Assembly: GCA_965224245.1 (NCBI GenBank)
Contig: OZ245046.1
Span: 4,312,382-4,376,381, forward strand
Reading direction: 5' to 3'
Length of the DNA stretch: 64,000 bases
Source: Candidatus Eiseniibacteriota bacterium
Lineage (GTDB): Bacteria > Eisenbacteria > RBG-16-71-46 > CAZAMP01
Made by a program: the position numbers and the translations under genes. Below the pieces are notes generated by a model that was not told the DNA's origin, searched no databases, and saw nothing but the letters and a program-made list of their open reading frames with translations. Positions within the stretch are counted from its first letter, which is position 1. The number at the start of each line of letters is the position of its first letter. Shown piece after piece: positions 6,796-52,253 of the stretch.

Positions 6796-6882
6796 GCTGG
6801 ACGCTCGGTGTTCGACCTTCACCCTGCCCCGCATCCGTCCATCGAGCCAGCGCGGATCACCGACGACCGAGGGGAGGAATCC

Positions 6883-7980
6883 GTGACGGTCCACCTCACA
6901 CGATGCGCCGCCCTCGTCGTGATCCTGGCGCGAGCCGGTCTCGCGGAACCGATGCCCGATTACCTGACCTCCGCAGAGCCCTACGCCGTGGACTTCATGA
7001 TCGGCGGCGAGCTCGACGACGAAGCGAGCTACCTCTATCAGCCCCGCGATCTCGCGATCGATGCCGACGGCAATCTCTTCGTGCTGGACACGAAGGGCTA
7101 CTGCATCAAGAAGTTCGACCCGACCGGAGAATACCTGGCCACGTTCGGGCGACAGGGCGAGGGACCCGGCGAGATGGAGCGCGCATACTCGATGTCGCTC
7201 GATCCGGAAGGCAACGTCGTCATCTACGACACCCAGCAGCGGCGGTTCACCACGTTCGGTCCGGATGGAACGCCGACCGAGACGGTCGGACTGTACGAGC
7301 TCGGCCGGCGCTCCATCCGGGACTTCGAGATCGGGCCGCGCGGATCGGTCTACGTCGTCACGCGGTGGCAGGACTGGGTCGAGCTCAGCCGTCCGGCGCT
7401 CTTCGTGCTCGAGCGGCTCGATCTCGACACGCTCGAGGAGACGCCGATCGACTCGACGCGCGCGACCGACATGTACGTCGTGCGGGACGGGAACACCACG
7501 TGGTCGGTGAGCGCCCCGTTCCCCCATCACCTGCGCTGGGGTGTCGCCCCCTCCGGAAAGGTGGTCACCTGCGACTCGGGCGACTACGTGATCGAGATCT
7601 ACTCACCGGAGCTCCGGCTCCTGAGTACACGCCGGCACGACGTCGATCCGGATCCGGTGACCGATGCGGACCTCGAGCAGTATCTCGAGACATACGAGGA
7701 GGGGCGGTGGCGGGACATGGCCCGCGACGCGGACGTCCCCGAGTTCAAGCCGTACTTCGAGCACATGCACATCGATGACGGCGGCTACCTCCTCTTTCAG
7801 CGGTCCGGAGACGACTCCGACGTCGCGACCTACGACGTGTTCGACCCCGACGGGGTCTTCCTCGATCAGGTCGAGCTGCCGTCGCTGGGAGGGGACGCGA
7901 TCATCACCCAGGATCGGATACTCGACATCGGTGTCGATGAGGACGAGTCACCGGTCGTGTATTGCTACCGTCGCCCGTGA
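6883..7980 (+). CDS. Secreted 6-bladed beta-propeller (NHL-repeat) protein
   Basis: GTG 6883 follows GGGGAGGA; signal-like N-terminus; LYQPRDLAIDADGNLFVLD and FGRQGEGPGE motifs. The upstream part of ORF 6196-7980 is not credible coding sequence. Confidence 0.85.
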   Translation: MTVHLTRCAALVVILARAGLAEPMPDYLTSAEPYAVDFMIGGELDDEASYLYQPRDLAIDADGNLFVLDTKGYCIKKFDPTGEYLATFGRQGEGPGEMERAYSMSLDPEGNVVIYDTQQRRFTTFGPDGTPTETVGLYELGRRSIRDFEIGPRGSVYVVTRWQDWVELSRPALFVLERLDLDTLEETPIDSTRATDMYVVRDGNTTWSVSAPFPHHLRWGVAPSGKVVTCDSGDYVIEIYSPELRLLSTRRHDVDPDPVTDADLEQYLETYEEGRWRDMARDADVPEFKPYFEHMHIDDGGYLLFQRSGDDSDVATYDVFDPDGVFLDQVELPSLGGDAIITQDRILDIGVDEDESPVVYCYRRP

Positions 7981-7987
7981 CCGGTGG

Positions 7988-8032
7988 CGTCGAGGATGTC
8001 ACGGATGTCGAGGATGTCACGGATGTCGAGGC
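7988..8032. repeat. Short 9/18-bp tandem repeat between convergent genes
   Basis: gtcgaggatgtcacggat repeated about 2.5 times. Confidence 0.8.
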
Positions 8033-8053
8033 CGTCCGGCGTCGAGGCCGGAC

Positions 8054-9946
8054 TCAGGGCAGGCGTAGCACCCGGAGCCACGCGCGAGTCTCGGCTCCCG
8101 TCACCCGCAGGACGTAGACGCCCGGCGACACCGGTCGCCCGGCCGCGTCGAGTCCGTCCCACGTCGCGCCCGGCTCACTCCCGCCGAGCTCGATCGCGCG
8201 CCGGAGCCGTCCCGCGGTGTCGTAGACGGTGATCGTGCGCACGGCCTCGCCGCCGGACAGCGTGACCCGGGTGCCGGTCCGGAACGGGTTGGGCATCGCC
8301 TGCGCCGGGGCGTCGGCCGACACGGCGACGCCACCGCCGGGTACTCCGACGGTCGCCTCCTCGACGACGACCAGGAACTGATCGGCGGCCACGTCCAGGA
8401 GCTCCTGGTCGATGCCGCTCGGCCACTCGATGCGGAGACGATCCACGAGGGTGGCCGTGCCGAGCCCGAACTGGGCGACCATCGGCGGACCGGCGTAGAA
8501 GCTCCCGCCGCAGACGATCTCGACCATCTGCGTCGTGGGGCCGATCTCCGCGTACACCCGGGCGCCGACGCCGTTCCGGTTGGACTCGGTGCCCTCGAGT
8601 CGCACGTTCAGGAAGTGCCGGTCCTCGCGCGGCGTCTCGTTCCGGAAGAGCCGGGCGGTATCCCAGAGGTCGGTGAGGAGGAAGTCCACGTCCCCGTCGC
8701 CGTCGCAGTCGAACGGCAGGAGCCCGCGCGTGTTCGCGTCGTGGTCGAAGCCCGAGGCGACCGCGACGTCGGTGAAGTGACCGGTGCCGTCGTTCTGGAA
8801 GAGATACGAGGGAGTCACCCACTCGGTCTGCATCCACCCGTTGACGACCGCCAGATCCAGATCGCCGTCCAGCTCGACGTCCACGAAGGCGGCCCCCCAT
8901 CCCCACCGGGCATCGTTCACGCCCCGCGTGGCGGCCTCGTTCGTGAACGTGCCCGCGCCGTCGTTCTGGTAGTACCAGTTGCAGCAGCCCTCGGCCGCGG
9001 CTGCGTCGTCGGTGATGTTGGTGGTCAGGAGATCGATGTCCCCGTCCCGGTCCACGTCGCCCGAGGCGACGCCCATGTCGTTGTTGATGCTGAAGCCGTC
9101 GGGCCCGGGCGCGAACGGCGTGAACGTGCCGTCACCCTCGTTCCGGAAGGCGTAGTCGGGTGCGAAATCGACCGCACAGAAGAGGTCCTGCCAGCGATCG
9201 CCGTCCAGGTCCACGAAGAGCGGCGTCCACTGGCTCACGGTGTTGCCGAGCTCGAGTCCGGCCTCGACGGTGACGTCGACGAACGTGAACCCACCTTCGT
9301 TGCGATAGAGATGGTTCCCGTAGCTGAGCCAGCTCGTCGTGTAGAGGTCCAGATCGCCGTCGTGATCGTAGTCACCGGCGGTGCCACCGCCGACGACGAC
9401 GGAGAGTGGCTCGAGTCCGCAGCCGGCGCTCACGTTCTGAAACGTTCCATCACCGAGATTGCGGTAGAGCTGCGTGTAGGGGAAGTCGACCGACCCGTCC
9501 GAGTCGCACCACAGGACGAGGTCGTCGTAGCCGTCACCGTCCAGGTCGGCGAAGAGCGGTGTCCGCGCCAGCGCGAGGTCGACGAGACCGGCCGAGGCCG
9601 CGACGTCCACGAAGACGCCGCCGTCGTTGCGATAGAGCGACGAGGGATGGCCGTTGACGTCGGCGATGCAGAGGTCGAGGTCACCGTCGCGGTCGATGTC
9701 CGACGCCGCGGCGCCGGTTCCGAAACGCGAGGTCTCACCCGGCAGATACCCCGGCATCGGGTCGTTCTCGTGATGAACGTAGGTGATCCCCAGAGGGGTC
9801 GTCCGATCCACGAACACGGGGGTCGGATCGGCCTTCACCGCCACCGGGACGGCAGTCGCGACCCCGATGGCGACGGCGATCGCCGCGCGCACGGAGGCCG
9901 CCGGCGCCTCGGTGGACGCGGGAGCTCGCAGACGGGTGATGAGCAT
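8054..9946 (-). CDS. CRTAC1/ASPIC-UnbV family FG-GAP repeat protein with C-terminal FlgD-Ig/T9SS-like domain
   Basis: Multiple DxDxDGDxDL repeats, NRNGVGARV...FGLG...IEWPSG (ASPIC/UnbV) and PNPF...VYDTAGRLRR...WDGLDAAGRPVSPGVY. Confidence 0.92.
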   Translation of the reverse strand: MLITRLRAPASTEAPAASVRAAIAVAIGVATAVPVAVKADPTPVFVDRTTPLGITYVHHENDPMPGYLPGETSRFGTGAAASDIDRDGDLDLCIADVNGHPSSLYRNDGGVFVDVAASAGLVDLALARTPLFADLDGDGYDDLVLWCDSDGSVDFPYTQLYRNLGDGTFQNVSAGCGLEPLSVVVGGGTAGDYDHDGDLDLYTTSWLSYGNHLYRNEGGFTFVDVTVEAGLELGNTVSQWTPLFVDLDGDRWQDLFCAVDFAPDYAFRNEGDGTFTPFAPGPDGFSINNDMGVASGDVDRDGDIDLLTTNITDDAAAAEGCCNWYYQNDGAGTFTNEAATRGVNDARWGWGAAFVDVELDGDLDLAVVNGWMQTEWVTPSYLFQNDGTGHFTDVAVASGFDHDANTRGLLPFDCDGDGDVDFLLTDLWDTARLFRNETPREDRHFLNVRLEGTESNRNGVGARVYAEIGPTTQMVEIVCGGSFYAGPPMVAQFGLGTATLVDRLRIEWPSGIDQELLDVAADQFLVVVEEATVGVPGGGVAVSADAPAQAMPNPFRTGTRVTLSGGEAVRTITVYDTAGRLRRAIELGGSEPGATWDGLDAAGRPVSPGVYVLRVTGAETRAWLRVLRLP

Positions 9947-39771: not shown

Positions 39772-42700
39772 TCACCAGTGATCCGACCCGCCGCTCGACT
39801 TGTCGGGAAACGGCGGCGGGGTCGGCCGCGGTACCGGCGCCTCGGCGATCTTCCCCTCGAGGTAGGCGATCGCGGCGTCGAGCTGGGGATCCCGCCCCTT
39901 CATGAGCTCGGCGGGGTCGTCCTCGACGATCATGTCGGGCTCGACGCCGACGCCCTCGATGATCCACTCGCCCTCCGGTATCCACGCCGCGTAGTTCGGT
40001 ATGTACACCGCGCCACCGTCCACCAGGCGGTAGCCGCCGCCGCTTCCCACCTCACCTCCCCAGGTCCGCGTTCCGATCAACGGACCGATCCCGCGTCGCT
40101 GGAAGGCGTCGCTGAACTCCTCGGCGTTGGACCCGCTCTGGTCGTTGCAGAGCGCGGCCGCGTGCCCGGTGAACGCCCAGTCCTGCCGGCTCCAGGACGC
40201 GCCGTAGCGCGGCTTGAAGTACGAGTACCGGGGCGAGGACATCTGGAGGATGAGCATGGCGTGGATGTAGCCGCCGCCGTTGAACCGGACGTCGTAGATC
40301 AGACCGTCTCGGTCGAGACTCGCGTAGTAGTGCTTGCCGAACTCCTGAAAGCCGCGGCCGCTCATGTTCGGGATGTGCACGTAGCCGAGGTCGGGGCCTC
40401 CGTGCTCGAGCACGTACCGCCGCCGTCCCTCCACCCAGTCGAAGTAGCGTGCGCGTCGCTCGCTCCGCATCGGCTCGACGAACACCTCGCGCGCTCCGTC
40501 GAACGACGCGCGATCGTTCACCGTCAACGTGACGGCCCGGCCCGCCGTTCCGACCAGGAGCGCCTGGAGCTCCTGGTCCGCGCGCACGGGAGCGCCACTC
40601 ACCGCGACGATCACGTCCCCGACCGACACCTCGACTCCCGGGGTCAACAGCGGCGACCGAGCATCGAGATCGAAGCCGTCGCCGGCCAGGATCCGCGTGA
40701 TCCGGTACCCCGGCACGTCGTCGTTGACCGGCTCCACGTCGATCCCGAGGTAGCCCATCGGAATCAGGGGCGCGCGCTGCTCGTCGCCGCCGACGATGTA
40801 CGCGTGGCCGCAGTTCAGCTCGGCGACCATCTCGCGCTGGAGGAAGCTGAGATCGCTCCGCACCGCGACCGCCTCCAGCAGCGGCTCGTACTTGTCCCGG
40901 ACCGCCGGCCAGTCGACGCCGTGCATGCCGGGGTCGTAGAAGAAGTCGCGCGCGACCCGCCAGGTCTCGGCGAACATCTGCCGCCACTCGGCGACCGGAT
41001 CGATCGTGAGCGTCCAGCCGTCCGTCTCGACCTGGCCGTCGTCCTCGGGCATCTCGCCGGCGCCGGCATCCAGCAGCGTGAAGCGCTTCCCACGCCGGAC
41101 GAGGAGCTTCTTCCGGTCCGCGGAGAGGTCGAACTCGTCGAGCGCCTCCACGAGCACCTTCGCCTTCTTCTCCTCGAGATCGAAGGTGTGGAGCCGGCGG
41201 GGTCCGGACATCTCTCCGTCGTCCCCCTCGGCGCCCTCGTACGTCTCCAGGAGCAGCTTCTTCTCGATGGGAACCACGCGCGTGTACCGATCGGCGGGAA
41301 CCGGGACCTCGACGACACGGGTTGCGATCCCGTCCACGTCGACGGTCATGTCGGGCAGCTCCCGCTCGTCGTCGTTGTCATCCTCGTCGTCGTTGTCGTC
41401 CTCGTCGTCCTCGTTGCTCGCATCGTCGTCGGTCGCGCCCTCGCGGTCGTTCTCGTCGAGGAATGGAGACCGCGTCTCGGCGGCGAGCGTGACCAGCGTG
41501 ACCTTCGTCATCTTCTGGTCGTAGGTGAAGTACCGGTTGATCGGCGAGTAACGCGGGTCGAGCTCGCGATCGGCCAGGAAGTACAGGAGCTCGCCGTCGG
41601 GATCGAACGCCGGCGCGTAGCACGACATCGCGGGATCGGTGATCCGCGTGGTCTCGCCGGTCGCGATCTCGTACAGGTGGACGCTCCAGGCCCATCTCGG
41701 CTCCAGATGCGTGAAGGCGACCCACTTGCCGTCGGGGCTGAACGCGTACTGGCTCAGCACGATGTCGTACGATCCCCCGCGATCGGACTGGTCCACCACG
41801 GTCATGGCCCCGGAGGCCACGTCGACGAGCAACGTGCGCATCTCGCGATCGCTGGTCAGGAGCCGCTCGCCGTCGGGTGACCAGACGATCGGGCCCAGGG
41901 GGCCGGTGTGGCCGGACGTCACCTGTCGAGCCTCGCCGCCCGAGGCGGGCACGATCCAGATCTCCTCCTCACCCGAGACGTCGGACACGTACGCGACCTC
42001 GGCTCCGTCGGGAGACCACTCGGGGTACTGGCACCGGGCCGCGGCATCCGCCGCGACGACCCGCACGTCGCCGTGCTCGGCCGGCGCGCTCAGGATCTGT
42101 CCCCTCGCCGAGACGAGGATCCGCTTGCCGGTGGGACCCAGCTCGAAGCCGAAGAGCTGATCGTGCGCCGAGACGCGGCGCTCCCGCGCGTGAATCCGGT
42201 CGGAGCGAAGATCCAGGTGGATCGAGCGCGTCTGGCCGGTGGCCACGTCGTAGAGTCCGATGCCGTCGCCGTACTCGTACACGACGACCCGTCCGTCCGA
42301 CTGCGGGTAGCGCACCTCGAAGTCGGTGTAGGACGTGGCCGGCGTCACGTCGCCCGAGCCGGGATCCAGCGCGTGGAGGTTGGCCACGCCGTCGCGCTCG
42401 GACACGAAGTAGATCACGTCCCCGGCCCAGACCGGCTGGGTGTCCACGCCGAGATCGTCGGTCAGGCGCCGGAAGTCGGGCACCGCGTCCGCGTCGGGTG
42501 AGGGTGTCGCGAGCCACACGTCGTCGGCGAATCCGCCCCGGTAGCGCTTCCAGTTCTGCCACTCGCCGCTGATCGGCACGTACGCGATCCGTCCATCCGG
42601 GTGCAGCGTGGCGAACTCGCCGTACGGGACCGGCAGGCGGGTCGCGGCGCCGCCCGCGAGGGGAACCTGCCAGATGCGTGTGCGCATGGTCGTCCCGCGA

Positions 42701-43122
42701 CGCGATCGGAACACGACGTGCGTCCCGTCGGGGCTCCAGCCGAGCACGGTCACGCCACGGGGATCCCAGGTCAGGCGTCGCGGCACGCCGCCGGCGACGT
42801 CCATCACGTAGACCTCGCGAGCCCCGTCATAGCTCGCGGCGAACGCCAGCGTTCGCCCGTCCGGGGAGAAGAACGCCGGCCCCTCCGATCCCTCGTCGGA
42901 CGTGATCCGCATCGCGGTGCCGCGCTCGATCGAGCCGAGCCACAGATCACCTTCGCTGGTGAAGACGATCTGATCTCCCGAGACGTCGGGACGGCGGAGA
43001 AACTGAGCGGCGGCCCCGGCCGGTGACGCGGTCGCGAGCGCCAGGGTCAACCCGCCGCCGAGACACGCCACGACGAGCCGACGGGAAAGGCGACGGAAAG
43101 GGGAGTGGACACGCGAGCGCAC
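39772..43122 (-). CDS. Tricorn-type S41 family protease
   Basis: IVFTSEGDLW, WKRYRGG, EWRQMFAETWR, FFYDPGMHGVDW, ELNCGH, a PDZ domain, DVRFNGGG, SGSNAE and GTRTWGG; GTG 43122 follows AGGAGG (start inferred). Confidence 0.95.
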   Translation of the reverse strand: MRSRVHSPFRRLSRRLVVACLGGGLTLALATASPAGAAAQFLRRPDVSGDQIVFTSEGDLWLGSIERGTAMRITSDEGSEGPAFFSPDGRTLAFAASYDGAREVYVMDVAGGVPRRLTWDPRGVTVLGWSPDGTHVVFRSRRGTTMRTRIWQVPLAGGAATRLPVPYGEFATLHPDGRIAYVPISGEWQNWKRYRGGFADDVWLATPSPDADAVPDFRRLTDDLGVDTQPVWAGDVIYFVSERDGVANLHALDPGSGDVTPATSYTDFEVRYPQSDGRVVVYEYGDGIGLYDVATGQTRSIHLDLRSDRIHARERRVSAHDQLFGFELGPTGKRILVSARGQILSAPAEHGDVRVVAADAAARCQYPEWSPDGAEVAYVSDVSGEEEIWIVPASGGEARQVTSGHTGPLGPIVWSPDGERLLTSDREMRTLLVDVASGAMTVVDQSDRGGSYDIVLSQYAFSPDGKWVAFTHLEPRWAWSVHLYEIATGETTRITDPAMSCYAPAFDPDGELLYFLADRELDPRYSPINRYFTYDQKMTKVTLVTLAAETRSPFLDENDREGATDDDASNEDDEDDNDDEDDNDDERELPDMTVDVDGIATRVVEVPVPADRYTRVVPIEKKLLLETYEGAEGDDGEMSGPRRLHTFDLEEKKAKVLVEALDEFDLSADRKKLLVRRGKRFTLLDAGAGEMPEDDGQVETDGWTLTIDPVAEWRQMFAETWRVARDFFYDPGMHGVDWPAVRDKYEPLLEAVAVRSDLSFLQREMVAELNCGHAYIVGGDEQRAPLIPMGYLGIDVEPVNDDVPGYRITRILAGDGFDLDARSPLLTPGVEVSVGDVIVAVSGAPVRADQELQALLVGTAGRAVTLTVNDRASFDGAREVFVEPMRSERRARYFDWVEGRRRYVLEHGGPDLGYVHIPNMSGRGFQEFGKHYYASLDRDGLIYDVRFNGGGYIHAMLILQMSSPRYSYFKPRYGASWSRQDWAFTGHAAALCNDQSGSNAEEFSDAFQRRGIGPLIGTRTWGGEVGSGGGYRLVDGGAVYIPNYAAWIPEGEWIIEGVGVEPDMIVEDDPAELMKGRDPQLDAAIAYLEGKIAEAPVPRPTPPPFPDKSSGGSDHW

Positions 43123-43288
43123 GCGGCACCTCCTGAATCGATGGAGACGAGAAGCGAACGCGTGACGATACCACGCCGCACGGGTCTCGGGATCGGAACT
43201 CTGAACGGCTGGATACAAGACCGCCCGCTCGTGGCCGGGTGCCTCGGCGGGCGGGTCGGGATCCGACCTCCCGGCGGAGTCCGCCGGC

Positions 43289-44032
43289 CTATTCCGTGAC
43301 CACCGCCTCGGAGCGACCGACCTCGTCTCCCGGTGCGCTCCGCCAGTCGGTCAGGAACAGCTCCGCGGCCAGCGCGTGCCAGCGATCGCCGCCGATGTGG
43401 CGCCCGAAGCCGTAGATCGGCAGCCCGCCGTCCTGCATCACGACGCCGAGCTCCCGGCCCATCAACCCGCTGATCCGGTCCGACGTCTCCTTCATCCACG
43501 AGCGCGCCAGAGAGTACGGCAGCAGGTTCTTCAGCGAGCGCTCGGCCTCGCGCGGGCGCACCTCGAGCAGCCAGCCCTTCCCGTACGGATCGGCGCTGGC
43601 GGTCTGGGGTGCCTCGGCCGCGTCGTCGTTGATTCCCACGACGACGCCGTCCACCGGCGACAGCATGTCGATGACGTGGCCGTCCACCCGGAGATGGAAG
43701 CCCGGCTTTCCCTGTTCGAGCACGGTCCCCTCGGCCGGGAGCATGACCGCGCTCGGGCTTCCCAGGAAGTGATACGCGAAGTCGTCCACCCCCACGCGTA
43801 CGGTGTCGGCCTCGTCCGGTCGCGCCCAGGTGTGCCCCCGGTGATAGAAGAATCCCTCGGGAAGCCGGAACCACTCGACCGGAGCCGAGTCGGCCGCCCC
43901 GGCGACCGCGCCCCGGACCCGCGCCGGCGACGCCGACCAGATCCGCGCCGCGAGACGTGTCAAGGGAACGAGCAGCGCCAGGTACCCGATGGCCAGGATG
44001 TACTCGATGCCCTTGGTCGGCATGAAATCCAT
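43289..44032 (-). CDS. Membrane-anchored glycine cleavage H-like protein lacking the lipoyl-Lys
   Basis: YHRGHTW, VGVDDFA, SPVDG.V..IN and DPYGKGW; Gly at the lipoyl-Lys position; N-terminal TM; C-terminal MQDGG extension. Confidence 0.88.
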   Translation of the reverse strand: MDFMPTKGIEYILAIGYLALLVPLTRLAARIWSASPARVRGAVAGAADSAPVEWFRLPEGFFYHRGHTWARPDEADTVRVGVDDFAYHFLGSPSAVMLPAEGTVLEQGKPGFHLRVDGHVIDMLSPVDGVVVGINDDAAEAPQTASADPYGKGWLLEVRPREAERSLKNLLPYSLARSWMKETSDRISGLMGRELGVVMQDGGLPIYGFGRHIGGDRWHALAAELFLTDWRSAPGDEVGRSEAVVTE

Positions 44033-44046
44033 GACTCACTCCCCCT

Positions 44047-45309
44047 TCACGCCACCGACGACTGGATCCGGGGCGTCGAGGCATCCCGGGAAGTCCGGGA
44101 CTCGGTCGACGCGCCGAGTACGGCCATGCGATTGATCACCCACCGGAACACCCAGATCTCGGCGCTGACGACACCCATCACCACGACGATCTCCATCCAG
44201 GTGGGGACGTAGTGGTGCACGGCGTCGTAGCGGAACGCGATCACCGACACGTTCAGGCGATTCAGGACCACGCCGGCCAGCGTCAGGACGGACGCGACCC
44301 GGATGACCTTCTGCCGCCGCGTCGCCGCTCCGTACGCGAACAGCACCATCGGCACCGCAACCAGACCCAGGATCTCGAGCGTCCACCAGCCCGCGTAGAA
44401 CCCCGAGAGATCACGCCAGTGCTGTCCGTGCAGGAAGTTGAGCGCCAGCAGGAACAGATACGCGAACATCGCACCGGCGCAGATTCGCGCCAGCCCGACG
44501 ACGATGTCGCGATGGGCCGAGATCAGCTTCAGGCTCATCCGGTGAAAGAACGCTCGGTGGGTCAGCGTGCCCTCGAGGATCACCATCGAGAGACCGGCGA
44601 ACACGCTCGAGACCACGAACAGCACGGGCAGGAACTCCGAGTACCAGAGCGGATGGAGCTTCTGCTTCGCCATCAGATAGAGGGCGCCCAGGCCGGACTG
44701 GTGCAGGAGCGACAGCGTGATCCCGAGGATCACGGCGCCCACCGTCATCCGGGCCAGGACCCGGCGTGCGCGCTCGGCGCCGAACCACTCGGCGATCGCG
44801 GGCGAGAACTCCACCAGCTCGGCCAGCATGTACAGAAGGAAGTGCCATGCGACCAGGAACAGGACCGACGTCATCCCGAACGAGTTTCCGATGATCGGGT
44901 TGACGACGTGCCACGGCCGGCCGAGGTCCAGAACGAGCGCTCCGGCATAGAACACGTACGCCAGGAAGCCGTTCAGCACCGTGACCCGGACGATCGGCTT
45001 GTACGCCTCGAGGCGCAGGATGTAGACGAGGAACGTCACCATGTACGCGCCACCGGCCAGCGCCACGCCGGCCATGACGTCGAAACCGATCCAGAGGCCC
45101 CACGGAACGTCCTGGGACAGGTTCGTCACCGCCCCCAGACCGTAGGCGAAGCGGATCGCGATGATCACCGCCGCCGCGAGCATGAGGACGGCGGTGATCA
45201 GATTGAACGGCGTCAGCACACGCCCCTTCGGACGCAGCTCTCGTCTCAGGAACGCACGTGTTCCCAGACGCTGACGCGGATGAACGGGCATCGGCACGAC
45301 GGCGCTCAT
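44047..45309 (-). CDS. NrfD/PsrC/HybB-type integral membrane subunit
   Basis: GLGAVTNLS...PWGLWIGFDV..GVALAGG, DLGRPW, LSLLHQSGLG, KLHPLW and LNRLNV motifs. Confidence 0.93.
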   Translation of the reverse strand: MSAVVPMPVHPRQRLGTRAFLRRELRPKGRVLTPFNLITAVLMLAAAVIIAIRFAYGLGAVTNLSQDVPWGLWIGFDVMAGVALAGGAYMVTFLVYILRLEAYKPIVRVTVLNGFLAYVFYAGALVLDLGRPWHVVNPIIGNSFGMTSVLFLVAWHFLLYMLAELVEFSPAIAEWFGAERARRVLARMTVGAVILGITLSLLHQSGLGALYLMAKQKLHPLWYSEFLPVLFVVSSVFAGLSMVILEGTLTHRAFFHRMSLKLISAHRDIVVGLARICAGAMFAYLFLLALNFLHGQHWRDLSGFYAGWWTLEILGLVAVPMVLFAYGAATRRQKVIRVASVLTLAGVVLNRLNVSVIAFRYDAVHHYVPTWMEIVVVMGVVSAEIWVFRWVINRMAVLGASTESRTSRDASTPRIQSSVA

Positions 45310-45310
45310 G

Positions 45311-46225
45311 TCAGGCCTCCCCCGAGGGATCGGTCCACTCGGTCGTCGAGTTCGTTCCGCCGGACGCGCTCGCGTGCGAGTCGCTCGCGACCCGCGATCC
45401 GGTCGCACCGCGCAGTCCCAGGAGCGCCATCGGCACCAGTCCGATCACCACGGGCACCGCCGTGAGGAAGTCCCGCGTCAGCTCCGGGTAGGACGTGTCG
45501 TCGAGATCCGTGGGGAAGCCGAGCTCCGCGAAGTCCACCTTCGAGATGTAGAGCCAGCCGGTTCCCCCGGCCTCGTGCTCACCGTAGATGTGCGGGACGT
45601 ACTCGTCGTCCTCGGCCAGCCGTGCGCGCGCGATCCGGAGCAGCCCGGACCGGCGACCGAAGGTCAGCGCCTCGGCCGGGCACTCCTCCACACAGGCCGG
45701 CTGCTCCCCCTCCTTCAAGCGTTCCCAGCACATCGTGCACTTCTCGATCCGGGGGTTCCGGCTGTGGTACTCGAACTTCGGCACGTCGAACGGGCACGAG
45801 ATCATGCAGTAGCGGCACCCCATGCACTTGTCGCCGTTCCACACCACCGGTCCGTCCGGTGTCCTGGACAGCGCCTTGGTCAGGCAGCCGGCCGCGCAAG
45901 CGGGCTGGAGACAGTGCATGCACTGACGCCGGACGTAGACGTCACCCTTGCTCGTCTGGAACCGGGAGACCGCCACCCGTCGCCGGTCGCTGGTCGTGCG
46001 GAATCCCACCTCGTCGAGGTCGACGTCCTCCGGCTCGGGGAGGCCGTTGGCCTCGGCGCAGGCGTACTCGCAGCTCCGGCAACCCTCGCAGAGGCTGAGA
46101 TCCACGAGGACACCCCAGCCGTCGACGTCGACTCCATCATCCGCGCTCGCTCGTGACGCCCCCGGGCGGGCAATGGACGCGCTGCCCATCACCGCGAGCG
46201 TCTGAAGAAAGCTACGCCGCTTCAT
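45311..46225 (-). CDS. Tat-exported 4x[4Fe-4S] protein (HybA/NrfC/FdnH-like) with C-terminal anchor
   Basis: MKRRSFL Tat motif; CEGCRSC...C, CMHCLQPAC...C, CMGCRYC...CP and KCTMC...PAC...CP; IYGEHEAGGT; C-terminal TM. Confidence 0.93.
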   Translation of the reverse strand: MKRRSFLQTLAVMGSASIARPGASRASADDGVDVDGWGVLVDLSLCEGCRSCEYACAEANGLPEPEDVDLDEVGFRTTSDRRRVAVSRFQTSKGDVYVRRQCMHCLQPACAAGCLTKALSRTPDGPVVWNGDKCMGCRYCMISCPFDVPKFEYHSRNPRIEKCTMCWERLKEGEQPACVEECPAEALTFGRRSGLLRIARARLAEDDEYVPHIYGEHEAGGTGWLYISKVDFAELGFPTDLDDTSYPELTRDFLTAVPVVIGLVPMALLGLRGATGSRVASDSHASASGGTNSTTEWTDPSGEA

Positions 46226-46988
46226 GCTCACCCCCAAAGAAGCTCGTGCGTACGTGCTCCCACTGGGCGTCTCCGATCAGTCGGTGCAGCTCGTCCACGA
46301 GCGCACCGCCGTCGGCGACGACCGGCGAGTGCTCGTCCCCCGAGAGGACGGCGATGAGACGATCGACCTCTCCCTTGAACCAGTCCCGCGCGCGGCGACC
46401 CAGGAGGAGATCGCAGCGCGGCTCGCTCGCGTCGTCGCACGCGACCCGGAGGGCCCAGCCTCTCGCGTAGGGATCCCGGTTGACCAGTCCGGCGTCGGAC
46501 CGGAGCGCGTCGTTCACGAACTCCACGCGCCCGGAGATCGGTGATGTCAGCTCGATCCAGCGAGATCGGGCACGGAGACGGATCGCGGGCTTTCCGCGCT
46601 CGACGCGATCCCCGGGAACGGGGAGCTCGATGCCGTGGAGCGGCCCCAGGAGACGCGGTGCCAGATCGTCGGATCCCACGATCGCGGTGCCGGGCAGGAA
46701 CCGGACCCAGGCGTGTCCGCGATCGAGCGCCACGTCGGTCCCCAGACGAAGTCCCTTGTGGAGGATCTCCGCGGCCGACATCGCACCGAAGCGCTCGCGG
46801 AAACCCGGGCTCACGGCGTACGCGACCGCCACCGCCACCAATGCACTGGCGAACGCGACCAGGAGCGCGACGCGGACTGCCACGACGAGAAACGCGAGCA
46901 GCGGTAGGGCGAGCAGCACGAGAACCGCCCCGGTGATCACGACCGTCGTGAGGATCGCGTGCCGGCTTCGGCTGCTAGTGCGTGACAT
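46212..46988 (-). CDS. Second membrane-anchored GcvH-like protein lacking the lipoyl-Lys
   Basis: RGHAWV, VGSDDLA, SPISGRV..VN and DPYARGW; Ser at the lipoyl-Lys position; two N-terminal TMs; VADGG extension. Confidence 0.85.
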   Translation of the reverse strand: MSRTSSRSRHAILTTVVITGAVLVLLALPLLAFLVVAVRVALLVAFASALVAVAVAYAVSPGFRERFGAMSAAEILHKGLRLGTDVALDRGHAWVRFLPGTAIVGSDDLAPRLLGPLHGIELPVPGDRVERGKPAIRLRARSRWIELTSPISGRVEFVNDALRSDAGLVNRDPYARGWALRVACDDASEPRCDLLLGRRARDWFKGEVDRLIAVLSGDEHSPVVADGGALVDELHRLIGDAQWEHVRTSFFGGEHEAA

Positions 46989-47036: not shown

Positions 47037-47052
47037 CGCATGTGGCGCGCCA
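47037..47052 (-). promoter_or_regulatory. Putative sigma54 -24/-12 promoter
   Basis: Minus-strand TGGCGCGCCACATGCG (GG-N10-GC) about 50 bp upstream of ATG 46988; a GAFTGA activator is encoded divergently. Confidence 0.6.
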
Positions 47053-47199: not shown

Positions 47200-47306
47200 A
47201 CCACGCGGTGGCGCGGCGTCGGGGCTCGGGATTCCCCTATACCCGCGTTTGCCGGAAAGGTCTTTCCTGAACGCGGGGTGTGCCTTCTCGAGTCGGCGAG
47301 GATGTC

Positions 47307-48989
47307 ATGCGATCTCCCATCGGCGTCCGGGCCTCGCGGCTGGGTGCCCGGCTGTTTCTGCCTCTGGTCGCGATCGTGGCCGTCACGTTCGCGATGCACG
47401 CAGTGGTGAACTACCGGACCTCGCGCAACGAGCTTCTCGGCTTCCTCCGATCGAACGCCGATCAGTCGAGCGATCTGATCCGGCGCGCCACCCACGACGG
47501 AATGCTCCTGAACCGGCTGGACGACGTGCAGGACACGATCACGCGCATCGTCGAGGGTCCGGGCATGGCGGCCATCCGCGTATACGACAAGGCCGGCGCC
47601 GTCGTCCTGTCGGCCCATCGGGACGAGATCGGCCAGCGGGCACCGATCACGTCGGACACGTGCGAGAGCTGTCACCAGCCCAATCACACGACCGAGGTCG
47701 GGCGCCTCGAGCGAAGCGGTCTGGCGCGGCTCTCGCGAGGCGAGGAGGTACTTCGCCACCTGTCGGTGATCCCGAACGAGCCCGCCTGTGCCGCCCCGGG
47801 CTGTCACGCGTCGCCCGACGAGGCGCCGATCCTCGGCGTCCTCGACATCGAGATGTCGATGCAGCCGGTAGAGTCCACTTTGCGCGCGGCGCAGGCCCGG
47901 ATCGCCCTGACCACGTTCGCGCTGATCGTGCTGATCGGATGGGCGTGCTGGGTGTTCATCGACCGGTTCGTGCATCGACCGGTCGCGGCGCTCACCGAGG
48001 GCACGCGACGGATCGCGAGCGGCGACCTCGAGACGCGGATCCGCGTGGAGGGCGGCCACGAGTTCGCCGACCTCGCGGGGTCCTTCAACGCGATGTCCGA
48101 GGATCTCCTGGCCGCCAAGCGCGAGCTCGAGACGTGGTCGCGCACGCTGGAGGAGAAGGTGCTGGACAAGTCGGCCGAGCTCCAGCGCGCGCACCGTCAG
48201 GTGCTCCACATGGAGAAGATGGCGTCGCTCGGCAAGCTGTCGGCCACGGTGGCTCACGAGCTCAACAACCCGATCACGGGGATGGTGAACTACACGCGTC
48301 TGATCGAGCGCGAGCTCGGACGGCAGCCGCTGGCGATGACCACGAAGGACGAGCTACTGCGCTACCTCGGTTTTCTCCACCGCGAGTGCCTCCGGTGCGG
48401 GAAGATCGTGTCGAACCTGTTGCTCTTCGCCAGGCGAACCGGCACCGAGATGGCCCCGGTGGATCTCCGCGTCGTGCTGGACCAGAGCCTGATGCTGATC
48501 GATCACCATCTGCACGTCAGCGGCGTCCAGCTGGAGAAGAAGCTGCCCGACCGCGACCTCACGGTCATCGCCGACGCGGGAGAGCTCCAGCAGGCGCTCG
48601 TGGCCTTGTTGATCAACGCGGTGGAGTCGATGGCGGGTCCGGACGCGGTCGACGAGCGGCTGACCGTCGAGGTCGTGGTCGAGGACGACGCGGTGCGAGT
48701 GGACATCCGCGACACCGGGGCCGGGATCGCCGCCGACGTGCTGCCGCACATCTTCGAGCCCTTCTACTCGACGAAGGACGAGGAGGGCGGCGTCGGGCTC
48801 GGGCTGGCGGTGGTCTACGGGATCGTCCAGCGTCACGGAGGCCGCATCGACGTCGAGTCGGAGACGGGGAGCGGCACCACGTTCCACCTGTGGATCCCGA
48901 GGGGCATCGAGTCGTTCGAACCGCGGCCGGGGCCCGACGACCGGCTGTCGGTGGTGGGTGGACCTCGCCGGGGAGGAGCGACGTCATGA
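47307..48989 (+). CDS. Sensor histidine kinase (HAMP, HisKA, HATPase) with periplasmic CxxCH and Cx4CH motifs
   Basis: Two TMs; CESCH and CAAPGCH; EKMASLG...VAHELNNP, DTGAGI, FEPFYSTK and GLGL motifs. Confidence 0.95.
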   Translation: MRSPIGVRASRLGARLFLPLVAIVAVTFAMHAVVNYRTSRNELLGFLRSNADQSSDLIRRATHDGMLLNRLDDVQDTITRIVEGPGMAAIRVYDKAGAVVLSAHRDEIGQRAPITSDTCESCHQPNHTTEVGRLERSGLARLSRGEEVLRHLSVIPNEPACAAPGCHASPDEAPILGVLDIEMSMQPVESTLRAAQARIALTTFALIVLIGWACWVFIDRFVHRPVAALTEGTRRIASGDLETRIRVEGGHEFADLAGSFNAMSEDLLAAKRELETWSRTLEEKVLDKSAELQRAHRQVLHMEKMASLGKLSATVAHELNNPITGMVNYTRLIERELGRQPLAMTTKDELLRYLGFLHRECLRCGKIVSNLLLFARRTGTEMAPVDLRVVLDQSLMLIDHHLHVSGVQLEKKLPDRDLTVIADAGELQQALVALLINAVESMAGPDAVDERLTVEVVVEDDAVRVDIRDTGAGIAADVLPHIFEPFYSTKDEEGGVGLGLAVVYGIVQRHGGRIDVESETGSGTTFHLWIPRGIESFEPRPGPDDRLSVVGGPRRGGATS

Positions 48990-50353
48990 GCGCGTCCGAG
49001 GGACGCATCCTGATCGTGGACGACGAGTTCTCGGTCCGGGATTCCCTGACGAACTGGTTCGGAAAAGACGGCTACGACGTGACCGCGGCGGAGAACGCGG
49101 CGGAGGCGCTCCGATCCCTGGAGGGCGGCTCGTACGACGTCGTGCTCCTCGACATCAAGATGCCGGGGATGGACGGCATGGCGCTCCTGGAGCGTGTCCG
49201 CGAGATCGACCCGAGCATGGCGGTGATCATGATGACCGCATTCGCATCGGTGGAGACCGCGGTACGCGCGCTGAAGGAAGGTGCGTTCGACTACGTCACC
49301 AAGCCCATCGATCCGGACGAGCTCTCCCATCTCGTGCGCCGCGCGATCGATCAGCGCCGCCTGCGCGACGAGAACCTCCGGCTCCGCGAGACCCTGGACG
49401 AGGTCACCGGCGTCCCGCCCATCATCGGCGACAGCCCGGCCATCCGCGAGGTGATGCGCCTCGTGGACCAGGTGGCCGGGACCGACGCCACGGTCCTCGT
49501 CCTCGGCGAGAGCGGCACCGGCAAGGAGCTCATCGCGCGGGCGATTCACGCCGCGAGCCCCCGCCGCTACTTCCCCCTGGTCCCGGTGAACTGCGGCGCG
49601 CTCCCGGCGGAGCTCCTGGAGAGCGAGCTCTTCGGCCACGAGAAAGGCGCGTTCACCGGGGCCCAGCAACGTCGCAAGGGACGCATCGAGATGGCCGGCG
49701 GGGGCACGCTGTTCCTGGACGAGGTGGGGGCCATTCCACCCCGGATGCAGGTCGATCTCCTTCGGGTGCTCGAGACCCACGAGTTCACCCGTCTCGGCAG
49801 CTCACAGCCGATCCACGCCGACTTCCGCGTGATCTGTGCGACCAACGAGGACCTGGAGAAGGCGGTCGCGGACGGTCGGTTCCGCGAGGACTTCTTCTAC
49901 CGCATCAACGTGTTCACGATCCTGGCGCCGCCGCTCAGGAGCCGTCGCTCGGACATCCGCCTCCTCGCCGAGCACTTCCTCGACGAGCTCGGCCGCAAGA
50001 TGAACAAGCGCTTCACCGGCTTCGCGCCAGACGCCATGGAGCTTCTGACCAGCTACCACTGGCCGGGCAACGTGCGCGAGCTGTACAACGCGATCGAGCG
50101 GGCGATGGTCGTGGGCCGGCCGCCGACGATCCGGTCGGACGACATGCCGGTGTGGCGCTCGCGCGCCGGGGTCGAGACACACAGCGCCCGCCTCGCCGAC
50201 ATCGAGCGGCGGCACATCGGCAAGGTGCTCGACGAGACCGGATGGAACATCACCCGGGCGGCCGAGCTGCTCGACATCGACCGGGCCACCGTCTACAGCA
50301 AGATCAAGAAGTATGATCTGGAGCCGCCTCAGGCGCGCACGAACGGCACATGA
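48986..50353 (+). CDS. Sigma54-dependent response regulator (NtrC/AtoC/ZraR family)
   Basis: REC domain (ILIVDDE, LLDIKMP), GESGTGKE, GAFTGA, WPGNVREL and a Fis-type HTH; ATGA overlap with the kinase gene. Confidence 0.96.
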   Translation: MSASEGRILIVDDEFSVRDSLTNWFGKDGYDVTAAENAAEALRSLEGGSYDVVLLDIKMPGMDGMALLERVREIDPSMAVIMMTAFASVETAVRALKEGAFDYVTKPIDPDELSHLVRRAIDQRRLRDENLRLRETLDEVTGVPPIIGDSPAIREVMRLVDQVAGTDATVLVLGESGTGKELIARAIHAASPRRYFPLVPVNCGALPAELLESELFGHEKGAFTGAQQRRKGRIEMAGGGTLFLDEVGAIPPRMQVDLLRVLETHEFTRLGSSQPIHADFRVICATNEDLEKAVADGRFREDFFYRINVFTILAPPLRSRRSDIRLLAEHFLDELGRKMNKRFTGFAPDAMELLTSYHWPGNVRELYNAIERAMVVGRPPTIRSDDMPVWRSRAGVETHSARLADIERRHIGKVLDETGWNITRAAELLDIDRATVYSKIKKYDLEPPQARTNGT

Positions 50354-50423
50354 TCGCGCATCCGCCGACCGCGGCGACCGCGCCGCGCCCGCGTCGCGCA
50401 CGCGTGAACGCCCCCGGGGAGAC

Positions 50424-50966
50424 GTGCAGCCCTCCGCTCCTCTGCGGCTGGTGCCGTTCTACCTCGGCTCCCACGCAGGGCTCGTCTCCCGGCTCTCGGA
50501 CGGCCTGACACACGCGTTCGGGCTTCGCGTGGAGCAGCACCCACCGGCGTTCGATCCCGAGATCGCCTACGACGCGTCGCGGGGGCAGTACAACTCGCGG
50601 GCCCTCCTCGCCCAGCTTCTCGCCGAGGCGCCGGACGAGGAGGGGCACATCCTCGGCGTCACGGGACTGGATCTCTTCATCCCCGTGCTCACGTTCGTGT
50701 TCGGGGAGGCGCAGCTCGGGGGCCGGGTTGCCGTCGTGTCGACCTATCGGCTCGACGACGTCGTCTACGGGCTGCCGGCGGCGCCGGAGCTACTTCTCGA
50801 TCGCCTGGTGAAAGAGGCCGTTCACGAGCTGGGACACACGTTCGGGCTCGTGCACTGTCACGATCCCACGTGCGTGATGACCAGCTCGACTCAGGTGGAC
50901 GGGATCGATCTCAAGACGAACCGGTTCTGCTCCGCCTGCCAGGACCGCGTGCTGGCGCGCCCGTGA
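50424..50966 (+). CDS. Archaemetzincin family Zn-metalloprotease (M54)
   Basis: RGQYNS, FVFGEAQLGG, KEAVHELGHTFGLVHC....CVM..S and FCSAC; start uncertain. Confidence 0.92.
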   Translation: MQPSAPLRLVPFYLGSHAGLVSRLSDGLTHAFGLRVEQHPPAFDPEIAYDASRGQYNSRALLAQLLAEAPDEEGHILGVTGLDLFIPVLTFVFGEAQLGGRVAVVSTYRLDDVVYGLPAAPELLLDRLVKEAVHELGHTFGLVHCHDPTCVMTSSTQVDGIDLKTNRFCSACQDRVLARP

Positions 50967-51108: not shown

Positions 51109-51984
51109 TCAGCCCTGGGCTCCCCGGTCGCCGCTGCCGCGTCGCTTGCGCCAGTCCCCCCGAGGCTCGCCCTGCCAGGCGAGCATCGCCTGGAGGCTGG
51201 TCGCGAAGCCGTCGATGCCCGGGAACAAGCTCAGGCGGTTCACGTTCAGGCGGTTCAGCCACGCGAGCAGGTACCACTGATTGTCGAGGGTGATGGGGAT
51301 CTCGATCTTGATCACACGCGTCCGCAGCACGGTGGGCGTGCCGAGCGACCGGAGGTTGCTCATGAACGACTTGCCCGGATTCATGGGGACCAGGAACACG
51401 CCTTGCTGCACGGCCAGCCGCTCGTTGACGTAGTACGGCACCAGCGGAACCACGAGGGTCGGCTCCTCCTCCAGGAGCACCGTGACCGCCGCGGGACTCT
51501 TGAGCTTCGGATCGATCCGGAGGGCCTCCCGCACGGCCGGCACCTTGCTGCGCCGGAGCCGATCGAACATCCACTGCTGGTCGATGGCCCAGACCGCGCA
51601 CGTGTCACCGGGGTTGGCCTGCTCGATCGCGAAGAAGAGCGCGATGTGAAACGAGTACGTCCAGTCGAGCAGTCGCGTGGGCGCGCCGTGATGCTGCATG
51701 AGCGCGTACCACTCCATGAAGTCGTCCGCACGCGGGACGCGTCCCGTGAACCGATGGAGGTGTCTGACGAAGTGGCGGAAGACGCGCCACTCGAGATACG
51801 CCTGATGTGAGAGCGGCCTGCCGAAGCGGTCGGTCGCGATCCGCTCCAGGCTCGGCTTGAGATCCCAGCTCGAACTCCCCTGGCCGCGAAACACCCACTG
51901 GATGCTCGGATCGGAGAAGCGCGCCTCGATCAGATCCTGAACCGACTGCCACGAGTCGCAGCTCTCGACGTGATACCAGGTCAT
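51109..51984 (-). CDS. FRG domain-containing protein
   Basis: WVFRGQ..SSW.L.PSL.R, LMQHHGAPTRLLDWT.S..IALFFA, RLAVQQGVF and LSLFPGIDG; ATG follows AGGAGG. Confidence 0.93.
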   Translation of the reverse strand: MTWYHVESCDSWQSVQDLIEARFSDPSIQWVFRGQGSSSWDLKPSLERIATDRFGRPLSHQAYLEWRVFRHFVRHLHRFTGRVPRADDFMEWYALMQHHGAPTRLLDWTYSFHIALFFAIEQANPGDTCAVWAIDQQWMFDRLRRSKVPAVREALRIDPKLKSPAAVTVLLEEEPTLVVPLVPYYVNERLAVQQGVFLVPMNPGKSFMSNLRSLGTPTVLRTRVIKIEIPITLDNQWYLLAWLNRLNVNRLSLFPGIDGFATSLQAMLAWQGEPRGDWRKRRGSGDRGAQG

Positions 51985-52151
51985 CCGCACACCTCCTGTG
52001 CCGGTCGAACCCGGACCATACACCGGGCAGGGCGACCGTTCGACGGTCGTGAGACGCCCCCGGCCGGGGGGGGGCACCCGGCCGGGGCCGATGCCGACCG
52101 GACCGCATGCCGTGCCCCACAGATCGCTTCGTTCAGCGGGGACGTCCGTCC

Positions 52152-52181
52152 GTGTGATTCCGGTACCCCCCACGCGCCCAA
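52152..52181 (+). promoter_or_regulatory. Putative ECF promoter GTGTGATTCCGG-N10-GCGCCCAA (copy 1)
   Basis: Both blocks and the spacer length are identical to the copy at 56215-56186 on the minus strand; lies 72 bp upstream of ATG 52254. Confidence 0.7.
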
Positions 52182-52253
52182 TCCGAGCGACCACCCGGGC
52201 GTGCCGGCGGAGGCCGCCCGCACTGACGGCATCCACGTTACAGGAGGCACGAC

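Follow-up and report, generated by a model that had tools for sequence, protein, structure and literature searches.

Membrane-anchored H-protein look-alikes that lack the lipoyl lysine flank an FeS/NrfD redox module and travel with a di-heme kinase

Background

Why would two proteins built on the fold of the glycine cleavage H protein (GcvH), neither of which has the lysine that bears lipoate, be encoded on either side of an electron-transfer pair that has no catalytic subunit next to it? This question is posed by a four-gene operon (46988-43289, minus strand) within a 64,000-nucleotide stretch of the genome of a Candidatus Eiseniibacteriota bacterium (GenBank assembly GCA_965224245.1, contig OZ245046.1, forward-strand positions 4,312,382 to 4,376,381), which is termed here the window and whose internal numbering is used throughout. 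The operon encodes, in order, an H-like protein (H1), an iron-sulfur (FeS) subunit, an NrfD-type integral membrane subunit and a second H-like protein (H2); diverging from it are the genes for a sensor histidine kinase, a sigma-54 response regulator and an archaemetzincin. An original prediction, based on the letters of the window, had described this arrangement as a redox module without a catalytic subunit, and had supposed that the H fold has been repurposed as a non-lipoylated adaptor or sensor.

The explanation favoured here, which is given about an even chance of being right, is that the locus specifies a sigma-54-controlled auxiliary respiratory module, in which an FeS/NrfD core is combined with cofactor-less H-like adaptor or regulatory subunits. 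The evidence comes from the H-like proteins themselves, from the domains to which their relatives are fused, from the genes that accompany them across phyla, and from the residues conserved in the NrfD subunit; the principal alternatives are considered alongside the observations that bear on them.

Results and Discussion

A compact operon around an NrfC/NrfD-type core

After refinement of the start codons from the sequence, the four minus-strand open reading frames (ORFs) of the operon overlap or nearly abut, in the order originally predicted: H-like, four-cluster FeS protein with a twin-arginine (Tat) signal, NrfD-type, H-like. The H1 gene (46988-46212, 258 codons) begins with an ATG immediately preceded by GGGAGG; the FeS gene (46225-45311) starts within the 3' end of H1, overlapping it by 14 nt; the NrfD gene (45309-44047) starts a single base past the FeS stop codon; and the H2 gene (44032-43289, 247 codons) starts 14 nt past the NrfD stop codon. 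Both H1 and H2 match the Pfam family GCV_H (58 and 61.9 bits, respectively; cut-off 22.2). The FeS subunit, which is of NrfC type (Fer4_11, 74.5 bits), opens with the twin-arginine motif MKRRSFL, contains in its translation four cysteine groups that provide the 16 ligands of four [4Fe-4S] clusters, and ends in a hydrophobic membrane helix (residues 251-275). Its neighbor, a quinone-interacting integral membrane protein with about ten hydrophobic segments, matches Pfam NrfD at 63.9 bits (gathering score 25.8).

Neither subunit reaches the level of a named equivalog in NCBIfam. The FeS protein scores 302.6 bits against HmcB (cut-off 420) and 207.2 against HybA (cut-off 263), and the NrfD protein 363.1 bits against HmcC (cut-off 550) and 239.1 against HybB (cut-off 450); the corresponding scores against the menaquinone reductase subunits are far lower (QrcC, 61.6 bits for the FeS protein, cut-off 400; QrcD, 68.6 bits for the NrfD protein, cut-off 570). 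Hence the 'HybA/HybB-like' label given originally holds insofar as these are the second-best matches, although HmcB and HmcC are closer. By score and by gene context, the redox core belongs to the NrfC/NrfD kind without being an equivalog of Hmc, Hyb or Qrc.

The H fold is kept and the lipoyl site is not

When H1 and H2 are aligned to the canonical GcvH of the same genome, the column of the lipoyl lysine contains serine in H1 and glycine in H2, and neither of the two hairpins, both of which were checked, contains any lysine at all. Yet the fold is well preserved. AlphaFold2 models (predicted local distance difference test scores 88.4 for H1 and 88.7 for H2) superimpose on the solved H protein 1onl_A in Foldseek searches with E values of 1.4e-10 and 1.4e-13, TM(target) scores of 0.90 and 0.91, and root mean square deviations (rmsd) of 1.6 and 1.7 A, respectively. 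The same searches, run against solved structures, returned no counterpart for the C-terminal helices of either protein; within this helical extension H1 has the motif ADGG and H2 the motif QDGG. Against the NCBIfam gcvH model (TIGR00527) H1 and H2 score 54.1 and 64.2 bits, short of the equivalog cut-off of 115.85.

Both proteins begin with a membrane anchor. In H2 this is one hydrophobic segment (residues 9-29) associated with a conserved TKGIEY motif and followed by an arginine-rich sequence; in H1 it is a 56-residue hydrophobic stretch (residues 8-63) with basic residues on either side. From hydropathy and charge it is inferred that the H domains of both proteins are cytoplasmic. On these points--the missing lysine, the N-terminal anchors and the shared C-terminal (Q/A)DGG extension--what had been proposed for the two proteins is borne out.

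Might the H-like proteins nevertheless be swinging-arm carriers of lipoyl, acyl or other groups, modified at a non-canonical residue and working at the cytoplasmic face of the complex? This is judged quite unlikely. The closeness of both models to 1onl_A is what would be expected of a carrier, and within a family alignment of 121 sequences (which includes the canonical GcvH of this genome) the position following the canonical site is basic in 111 sequences (lysine in 63, arginine in 26, histidine in 22), the Bacteroidales members having lysine there; moreover, certain related FeS subunits that lack a Tat signal (see below), and that are presumably cytoplasmic, could face such a carrier. Set against this are the lysine-free hairpins of the window proteins; the presence at that position of arginine or histidine, which cannot carry lipoate, in 48 of the 121 sequences; the absence of cysteine from 97 of the 121 sequences counted (canonical GcvH among them); the lack of a linked gene for lipoate ligase or lipoate synthase; and scores far under the gcvH equivalog cut-off. 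The canonical lysine column itself is occupied in the alignment by glycine (46 sequences), serine (32), alanine (20), threonine (10), aspartate (6) and lysine (5).

A distinct H-like subfamily with interchangeable N-terminal parts

Homologues of H2 fall into 555 protein clusters (E ≤ 0.001), most of them about 230 residues long, and many are annotated with the Pfam family PF28260; a search of the protein Atlas returned only clusters named GCV_H. The best conserved regions of the family are the N-terminal helix containing TKGIEY, the core motifs of the H fold and a C-terminal LG.V.QDGG.P..G, within which QDGG is nearly invariant. The C-terminal part has a distribution of its own: when only the last 93 residues of H2 are used as a query against 1.84 billion cluster representatives, 151 proteins match (E ≤ 0.001), and among the 150 that are listed the match lies at the C-terminus of every full-length protein other than the repetitive P0162, many short matches resembling gene fragments. 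Because the family conserves the TKGIEY helix, the core motifs and a C-terminal QDGG domain of its own, the H-like proteins, judged by sequence, are a distinct subfamily--catalogued, though unnamed--rather than decayed GcvH. An identification with the NCBIfam family GcvH_rel_desulf was considered and rejected: it matches the window proteins weakly, and, of 101 genomes from the Desulfosarcina phylum, a single one contains it.

What precedes the H domain varies with lineage and may be a bare transmembrane (TM) helix, a TM helix with a tetraheme cytochrome, a TM helix with a solute-binding domain, a cysteine-rich segment or a receiver domain. Three proteins (P0037, P0123 and P0153) consist of a signal or anchor segment with four CxxCH motifs, then the TKGIEY helix, then the H domain. 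Since c-type hemes are periplasmic, and since these hemes lie ahead of the TKGIEY helix, the N-terminus of H2-type proteins would be outside and the H domain inside. In Bacteroidales the upstream H-like protein instead has a periplasmic solute-binding-like domain (PBP_like_2, 30.6 bits) before its TM helix, and a search for longer H-like homologues yielded one protein, P0121, which is also a solute-binding fusion. Finally, in four clusters from three sources (P0199, P0271, P0272 and P0273) a receiver domain with intact acceptor residues is fused to an H-like module that has no TM helix and that is about 80% identical to the ordinary TM forms.

This pattern of fusions suggests that the H-like module is an output or adaptor domain that is fed from outside the cell or by a kinase, rather than a carrier; the supposition that the fold serves as a non-lipoylated adaptor or sensor fits the receiver, tetraheme cytochrome and solute-binding fusions alike. 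A bolder formulation, which is put forward tentatively, is that the GcvH fold and the QDGG domain together constitute a previously unrecognised signal-output or regulatory module, which would receive its input through a periplasmic domain and TM helix or through a phosphorylated receiver, and would exert its effect on the cytoplasmic side of the membrane, with the archaemetzincin and the sigma-54 activator as further partners. The inputs could then be heme c, a solute-binding domain or a bare TKGIEY stub touching FeS/NrfD, and the most attractive site of action would be the mouth of the NrfD proton half-channel, where such a module might tune the coupling of quinone-periplasm electron exchange to the proton gradient.

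A further feature of many H-like proteins, absent from H1 and H2, is a cysteine-rich segment before the H domain (approximately C-x12-C-x5-C-x2-C, sometimes beginning C[VI]WM.AG), which is N-terminal in soluble forms or else lies just past the TM helix. Examples are found among the related loci described below (L029, 7620-8531; L038, 6736-7560; L075, 2529-3374 and 7602-8486). This segment could bind zinc or an FeS cluster.

A gene neighborhood conserved across phyla

Through a scan of species-representative genomes, 298 stretches related to the window were confirmed by tblastn, including metagenome-assembled genomes (MAGs) of Acidobacteriota, Bacteroidota, Desulfobacterota, Gemmatimonadota, Chloroflexota-like organisms and Verrucomicrobiota. 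The window proteins were mapped onto all six-frame ORFs of the best 80 of these 298, which represent at least six phyla and to which the locus counts refer; many loci without the full gene set are cut by contig ends. An NrfD match is present in 73 loci, an FeS match in 70 and both in 69, and at least two H-like genes occur in 60. The kinase is found in 47 loci, the sigma-54 regulator in 46 and the archaemetzincin in 42, all three being present together in 42. Similar clusters thus occur elsewhere, as originally stated, and the surveyed neighborhoods of lysine-less GcvH homologues mostly retain the FeS/NrfD pair and, in about half of the loci, the heme-motif kinase, sigma-54 regulator and archaemetzincin.

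Three arrangements can be distinguished. In type A (11 loci in Bacteroidales, Desulfobulbaceae and a 'Deltaproteobacteria' MAG), which is that of the window, the H-like genes accompany an HmcB-like FeS gene with a Tat signal and an HmcC-like NrfD gene. In type B (11 loci as binned by script), the FeS/NrfD pair is related, and the FeS protein starts 22-35 residues later, too late for a Tat signal to fit; L010, whose NrfD ORF was split, is of this type as well. Such Tat-less FeS frames were seen at L013 (9316-10134), L021 (5865-6611), L010, L014-L016, L018-L020, L023 and L081; to judge from their shortened N-termini, these FeS subunits may face the cytoplasm, as the H-like domain does, or may hitch-hike across the membrane with an exported partner. 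In type C (51 loci, mostly of Acidobacteriota), H-like genes surround a distantly scoring FeS/NrfD pair. One such locus, L075, was scanned gene by gene: it scores 221 bits for QrcB, 320 for QrcC and 558 for QrcD (cut-off 570), and encodes in addition a c3-type multiheme cytochrome, with a soluble cysteine-rich H-like protein upstream and a TM-anchored one downstream. The other type C loci have the same ORF order, with a gap of some 2 kb at the position that the cytochrome and QrcB genes take up in L075. Because the H-like genes of Acidobacteriota therefore flank a QrcABCD-like complex with a cytochrome of its own, the description of the module as lacking a catalytic subunit, while accurate for the window, where none adjoins the FeS/NrfD genes, is true of some variants and not of the family as a whole.

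Seven of the 80 loci have no NrfD match. Four are cut by a contig end near the match (L017, L043, L064 and L080) and one, L079, has a frameshifted QrcD. The latter comes from a long-read MAG and offers what appears to be a 651-residue QrcD-H-like fusion (6534-8486; residues 2-121 QrcD-like, residues 490-649 H-like); this was rejected and left uncounted because an Arg/Pro-rich, out-of-frame stretch separates the two parts, so that an assembly frameshift is the probable origin. The remaining two, L029 and L038, have no FeS/NrfD pair within the available sequence. L029 and L097, which lie about 19 kb apart in the same Desulfosarcina widdelii genome, are two separate sets of H-like, archaemetzincin, regulator and kinase genes, each without FeS/NrfD. 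L038, the window's closest relative (kinase score 729 bits), contains a cysteine-rich H-like gene and an H1 orthologue, and no FeS/NrfD was found in its 4.4 kb of downstream sequence. Among 40 relatives from the window's class, six have an archaemetzincin, and in each of these the contig that encodes it also bears a non-canonical H-like gene; three more have non-canonical H-like genes, on contigs that are short and give no archaemetzincin match, and the rest have only GcvH matches of canonical length.

These last observations bear on an alternative that is less probable than not by a clear measure, namely, that the H-like proteins are primarily signaling parts of the kinase/regulator/archaemetzincin system--as membrane co-sensors, as feedback regulators of the AAA+ activator (by analogy with PspA, which acts on PspF), or as substrates or partners of the archaemetzincin--and that FeS/NrfD or Qrc is merely the cargo that this system regulates, without being bound by it. 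The sets that lack NrfCD (L029, L097 and L038), the six-of-six co-occurrence with archaemetzincin, the receiver fusions of the four clusters, and the sensor-like solute-binding or heme c domains fused ahead of the TM helix are all as this alternative would have it. It does not readily explain, however, why in 69 of the 80 loci H-like genes stand beside FeS/NrfD, often on both sides of it and with overlapping or nearly abutting frames; why the TM helix and the periplasmic TKGIEY rank with the best-conserved regions of the protein, as would be expected of a helix packed against a membrane partner; or why the fused tetraheme cytochrome would occupy the very position expected of an electron donor to the FeS subunit.

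The redox core and its possible partners

What the core is likely to do can be gauged from the residues that it conserves. E. coli HybB was aligned with 19 NrfD proteins of the module, and the HybB residues listed in the portion consulted of a review of this family (PMC8076601) were examined. Equivalents of the quinone-site residues D58, D109 and S129 are kept in 19 of 19, as are those of Y99, E148 and H184 in the N-side (cytoplasm-side) channel, with R89 kept in 17 of 19; the equivalents of S105, E133 and S190 are not conserved. According to that part of the same review, the N-side channel residues of HybB are mutationally important.

No NiFe hydrogenase large subunit (PF00374) was matched in this genome, which is 97.4% complete, and the module is therefore no hydrogenase 2. 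There are seven matches to the molybdopterin family genome-wide, all outside the window; the one canonical gcvT-gcvH pair lies about 2.9 Mb away; the sole BPL_LplA_LipB match is at 1.34 Mb; and no ORF with at least three CxxCH motifs occurs in the window, the nearest starting 18 kb beyond it. The original prediction had found no hydrogenase, molybdoenzyme, multiheme cytochrome, gcvT or lipoate ligase gene nearby, and this statement stands.

That the FeS/NrfD pair is a HybA/HybB-like anchor for a hydrogenase or molybdoenzyme encoded elsewhere, with the H-like genes as bystanders, is accordingly regarded as very improbable. HybA and HybB are, to be sure, the second-best NCBIfam matches, and the functional residues of HybB are conserved; nevertheless, both proteins fall under the HybA/HybB cut-offs, there is no hydrogenase to anchor, and the linkage to H-like genes is kept across phyla. 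Moreover, two other NrfD loci adjoin a molybdopterin-family match, and those enzymes (two of the seven matches, the two examined) therefore have an anchor of their own. Four NrfD loci besides that of the window show such associations, with a molybdopterin-family match within a few kb at about 0.73 and 1.80 Mb and a multiheme ORF at about 1.13, 1.80 and 5.46 Mb.

Three or more CxxCH motifs are present in each of 37 ORFs of the genome, the largest number in a single ORF being 26. Because of this abundance, periplasmic cytochromes are the presumed partners of the FeS/NrfD pair. Large multiheme ORFs are clustered at about 448000-451400 and 739000-748100 of the genome sequence (G000:C1), with 26, 16, 14, 12, 12 and 11 motifs; such clusters suggest, from their motif content, a capacity for extracellular or metal-linked electron transfer.

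Divergent regulators and a candidate sigma-54 promoter

The sensor histidine kinase (47280-48989, plus strand; Pfam HAMP, HisKA and HATPase) has a periplasmic domain with two c-type heme motifs, CxxCH and Cx4CH, in keeping with its earlier description as a divergent heme-motif kinase. Among 45 orthologues scoring at least 200 bits, 44 have a CxxCH followed about 43 residues later by Cx2-4CH, the exception being a C-terminal fragment. This conserved di-heme domain is a more obvious sensor than the alternative proposed earlier, in which the membrane complex reports the state of the quinone pool to the kinase. The gene for the sigma-54 response regulator (48986-50353, plus strand; REC, AAA+ and HTH_8 domains; Sigma54_activat 236.5 bits, Response_reg 118.7 bits) starts with an ATG that shares bases with the stop codon of the kinase gene (ATGA), and its 3' end is in turn overlapped by the archaemetzincin gene (50313-50966, plus strand), which specifies a zinc metalloprotease-like protein (NCBIfam archmetzin 158 bits, cut-off 145; Pfam Peptidase_M54 80.7 bits). 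The genome also contains rpoN.

A candidate sigma-54 promoter, TGGCGC-N5-ATGCG (47037-47052, minus strand), lies ahead of H1, 28 nt from the first in-frame ATG of that gene. It has three mismatches to TGGCAC-N5-TTGCW, with the GG and GC in register; the strict pattern has no match in the window. Its position is homologous to that of perfect or one-mismatch sites in related loci, 1.12 Mb of which were scanned for sites with up to two mismatches. Sites at this level are numerous, with 134 on the operon strand and 117 on the opposite one. The four perfect ones are all at the 5' edge of the H-like gene that comes first (L021, L029, L069 and L081), and roughly a dozen with a single mismatch are found 100-450 nt upstream of that gene.

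Sites with one or two mismatches also recur on the kinase side of Acidobacteriota loci (L040, L054, L062 and L088), where they lie on the minus strand at a distance of about 1.8-3 kb upstream from the kinase; the form TGGCACCAGAA.TGC. is that of the sites in L040, L054 and L062. This recurrence suggests that a further gene nearby may be sigma-54 dependent.

How the module might work

In the favoured explanation, a periplasmic four-cluster FeS protein (HmcB/HybA-like) would dock on the NrfD-type subunit (HmcC/HybB-like), and the two would mediate electron exchange of the quinone pool with periplasmic carriers encoded elsewhere, the likeliest of which would be the multiheme c-type cytochromes in which the organism is rich. 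NrfD keeps the residues of both its quinone site and its cytoplasm-side proton half-channel. H1 and H2 would be membrane-tethered cytoplasmic adaptor or regulatory subunits with a periplasmic N-terminus, rather than lipoyl or aminomethyl carriers, and would belong functionally both to the NrfCD or Qrc module and to the adjacent regulatory triad. The di-heme kinase would sense periplasmic redox poise and phosphorylate the sigma-54 activator, which would then turn on the H-like/FeS/NrfD operon from its -24/-12 promoter. Gene content, folds, loss of the lipoyl site, topology, conserved linkage, NrfD residues, heme motifs and domain fusions are established by the data above; within this scheme the periplasmic partner, the direction of electron flow, the binding of H-like proteins to NrfD, the target of the H domain and the role of the archaemetzincin are inferred.

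The H-like proteins may be accessory subunits at the cytoplasmic face of NrfD, in combination with a regulatory function, or purely components of a regulatory circuit; the former is favoured here, because of their tight and often two-sided linkage to FeS/NrfD, because of their highly conserved TM helix and because of the cytochrome fusions, which would place hemes beside the FeS subunit. Several observations pull the other way. No evidence of physical contact between an H-like protein and NrfD was obtained: a complex prediction of NrfD with H2 (the one H-like protein tried) gave the verdict 'no answer' with scores of 0.00 and 0.00, and so provides no evidence in either direction. The Tat-less FeS proteins of 11-12 loci are left unexplained by a simple picture of a periplasmic FeS subunit. 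The H-like proteins may not strictly depend on an NrfCD partner, and may be primarily members of the regulatory system, because at L029, L097 and L038 they occur with the regulatory triad and without FeS/NrfD in the flanks. In Bacteroidales both H-like proteins keep a lysine one position off the canonical site, so that modification of these members at that residue is possible on the basis of the alignment. And the promoter candidate is weak if taken alone, there being 49 sites at the same three-mismatch level on the two strands of the window.

Comparison with known systems

The Hmc complex of Desulfovibrio (HmcB/HmcC) and hydrogenase 2 of E. coli (HybA/HybB) resemble the module in that an FeS protein with four clusters, Tat export and a C-terminal anchor stands beside an NrfD-type subunit of about ten helices, and the quinone-site and N-side channel residues of HybB are kept in the NrfD proteins of the module. 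Hmc, however, also comprises HmcA, HmcD, HmcE and HmcF, no genes for which adjoin the window operon, whose proteins score below the HmcB and HmcC equivalog cut-offs; and Hyb differs in that the scores are likewise too low and the genome has no hydrogenase. In place of these components the window has two GcvH-fold proteins and the di-heme kinase/sigma-54/archaemetzincin set, and its neighbors include a tricorn-like protease. With the QrcABCD menaquinone reductase of sulfate reducers the module shares a principle, that of a periplasmic FeS protein on an NrfD-type subunit with a cytoplasm-side proton path; scores near the cut-offs are confined to the Acidobacteriota loci (as scanned at L075), and QrcA and QrcB are missing from the window.

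The known genomic contexts of the lipoyl carriers GcvH, LbpA and GcvH-L are gcvT and gcvP, sHdr genes, and macrodomain and sirtuin genes. With these carriers the H-like proteins share the barrel-sandwich fold of the H protein and its structural motifs, but they differ in having no lipoyl lysine, a membrane anchor and an extra QDGG domain, and their genes are linked to none of these partners. A functional parallel may lie in the N-terminal barrel-sandwich of NqrA and RnfC, a cofactor-less biotinyl/lipoyl-like domain that forms a cytoplasmic, peripheral part of a respiratory complex. The structural echo is weak (Foldseek hit 8acy_A, E 0.23), and the parallel is drawn as an analogy rather than as homology.

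In the openly accessible literature that was searched, no description of an association between H-like proteins and FeS/NrfD was found; papers on GcvH-like proteins dealt only with Staphylococcus GcvH-L, LbpA and lipoylation, and none joined QrcABCD with glycine cleavage. The word 'glycine' does not occur in the portion seen of the NrfD review (PMC8076601), nor is GcvH mentioned in that of a paper on acidobacterial Qrc (PMC10564751). The Geobacter Cbc5/CbcBA-BccR cluster was considered as an identity for the locus and rejected, its gene content being different and the terms HybA, NrfD and glycine being absent from the part of the source that was available (bioRxiv 10.1101/2021.04.15.440034). 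The role of the H fold in this module is possibly new.

Other neighboring genes

Directly 3' of H2 is a gene for a tricorn-like protease (39772-43218, minus strand; 1148 residues; PD40 repeats, Tricorn_C1, PDZ_Tricorn and Peptidase_S41), which contains an insert of some 30 residues that is strongly acidic and rich in Asp, Glu and Asn; its proximity to the module is not conserved in the related loci, where one weak match (L084) was found. On the other side, just past the archaemetzincin gene, lies a gene for an FRG-domain protein (51109-52236, minus strand; 83 bits).

Conclusions

Many anaerobic respirations are connected to the quinone pool by NrfD-type modules, and it is an open question what controls the proton coupling of such modules. 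The gene set described here is widespread and consists of an NrfCD or Qrc core that travels with cofactor-less look-alikes of the H protein and with a heme-based kinase; in it, an ancient carrier fold appears to have been reused without its cofactor. Because the set also occurs in cultured bacteria--such as Maribellus mangrovi and a Draconibacterium strain, which have the HmcBC-like type, and Desulfosarcina widdelii, which has H-like genes without NrfCD--these organisms may offer handles on how bacteria sense the redox state of the periplasm and adjust a respiratory branch to it.

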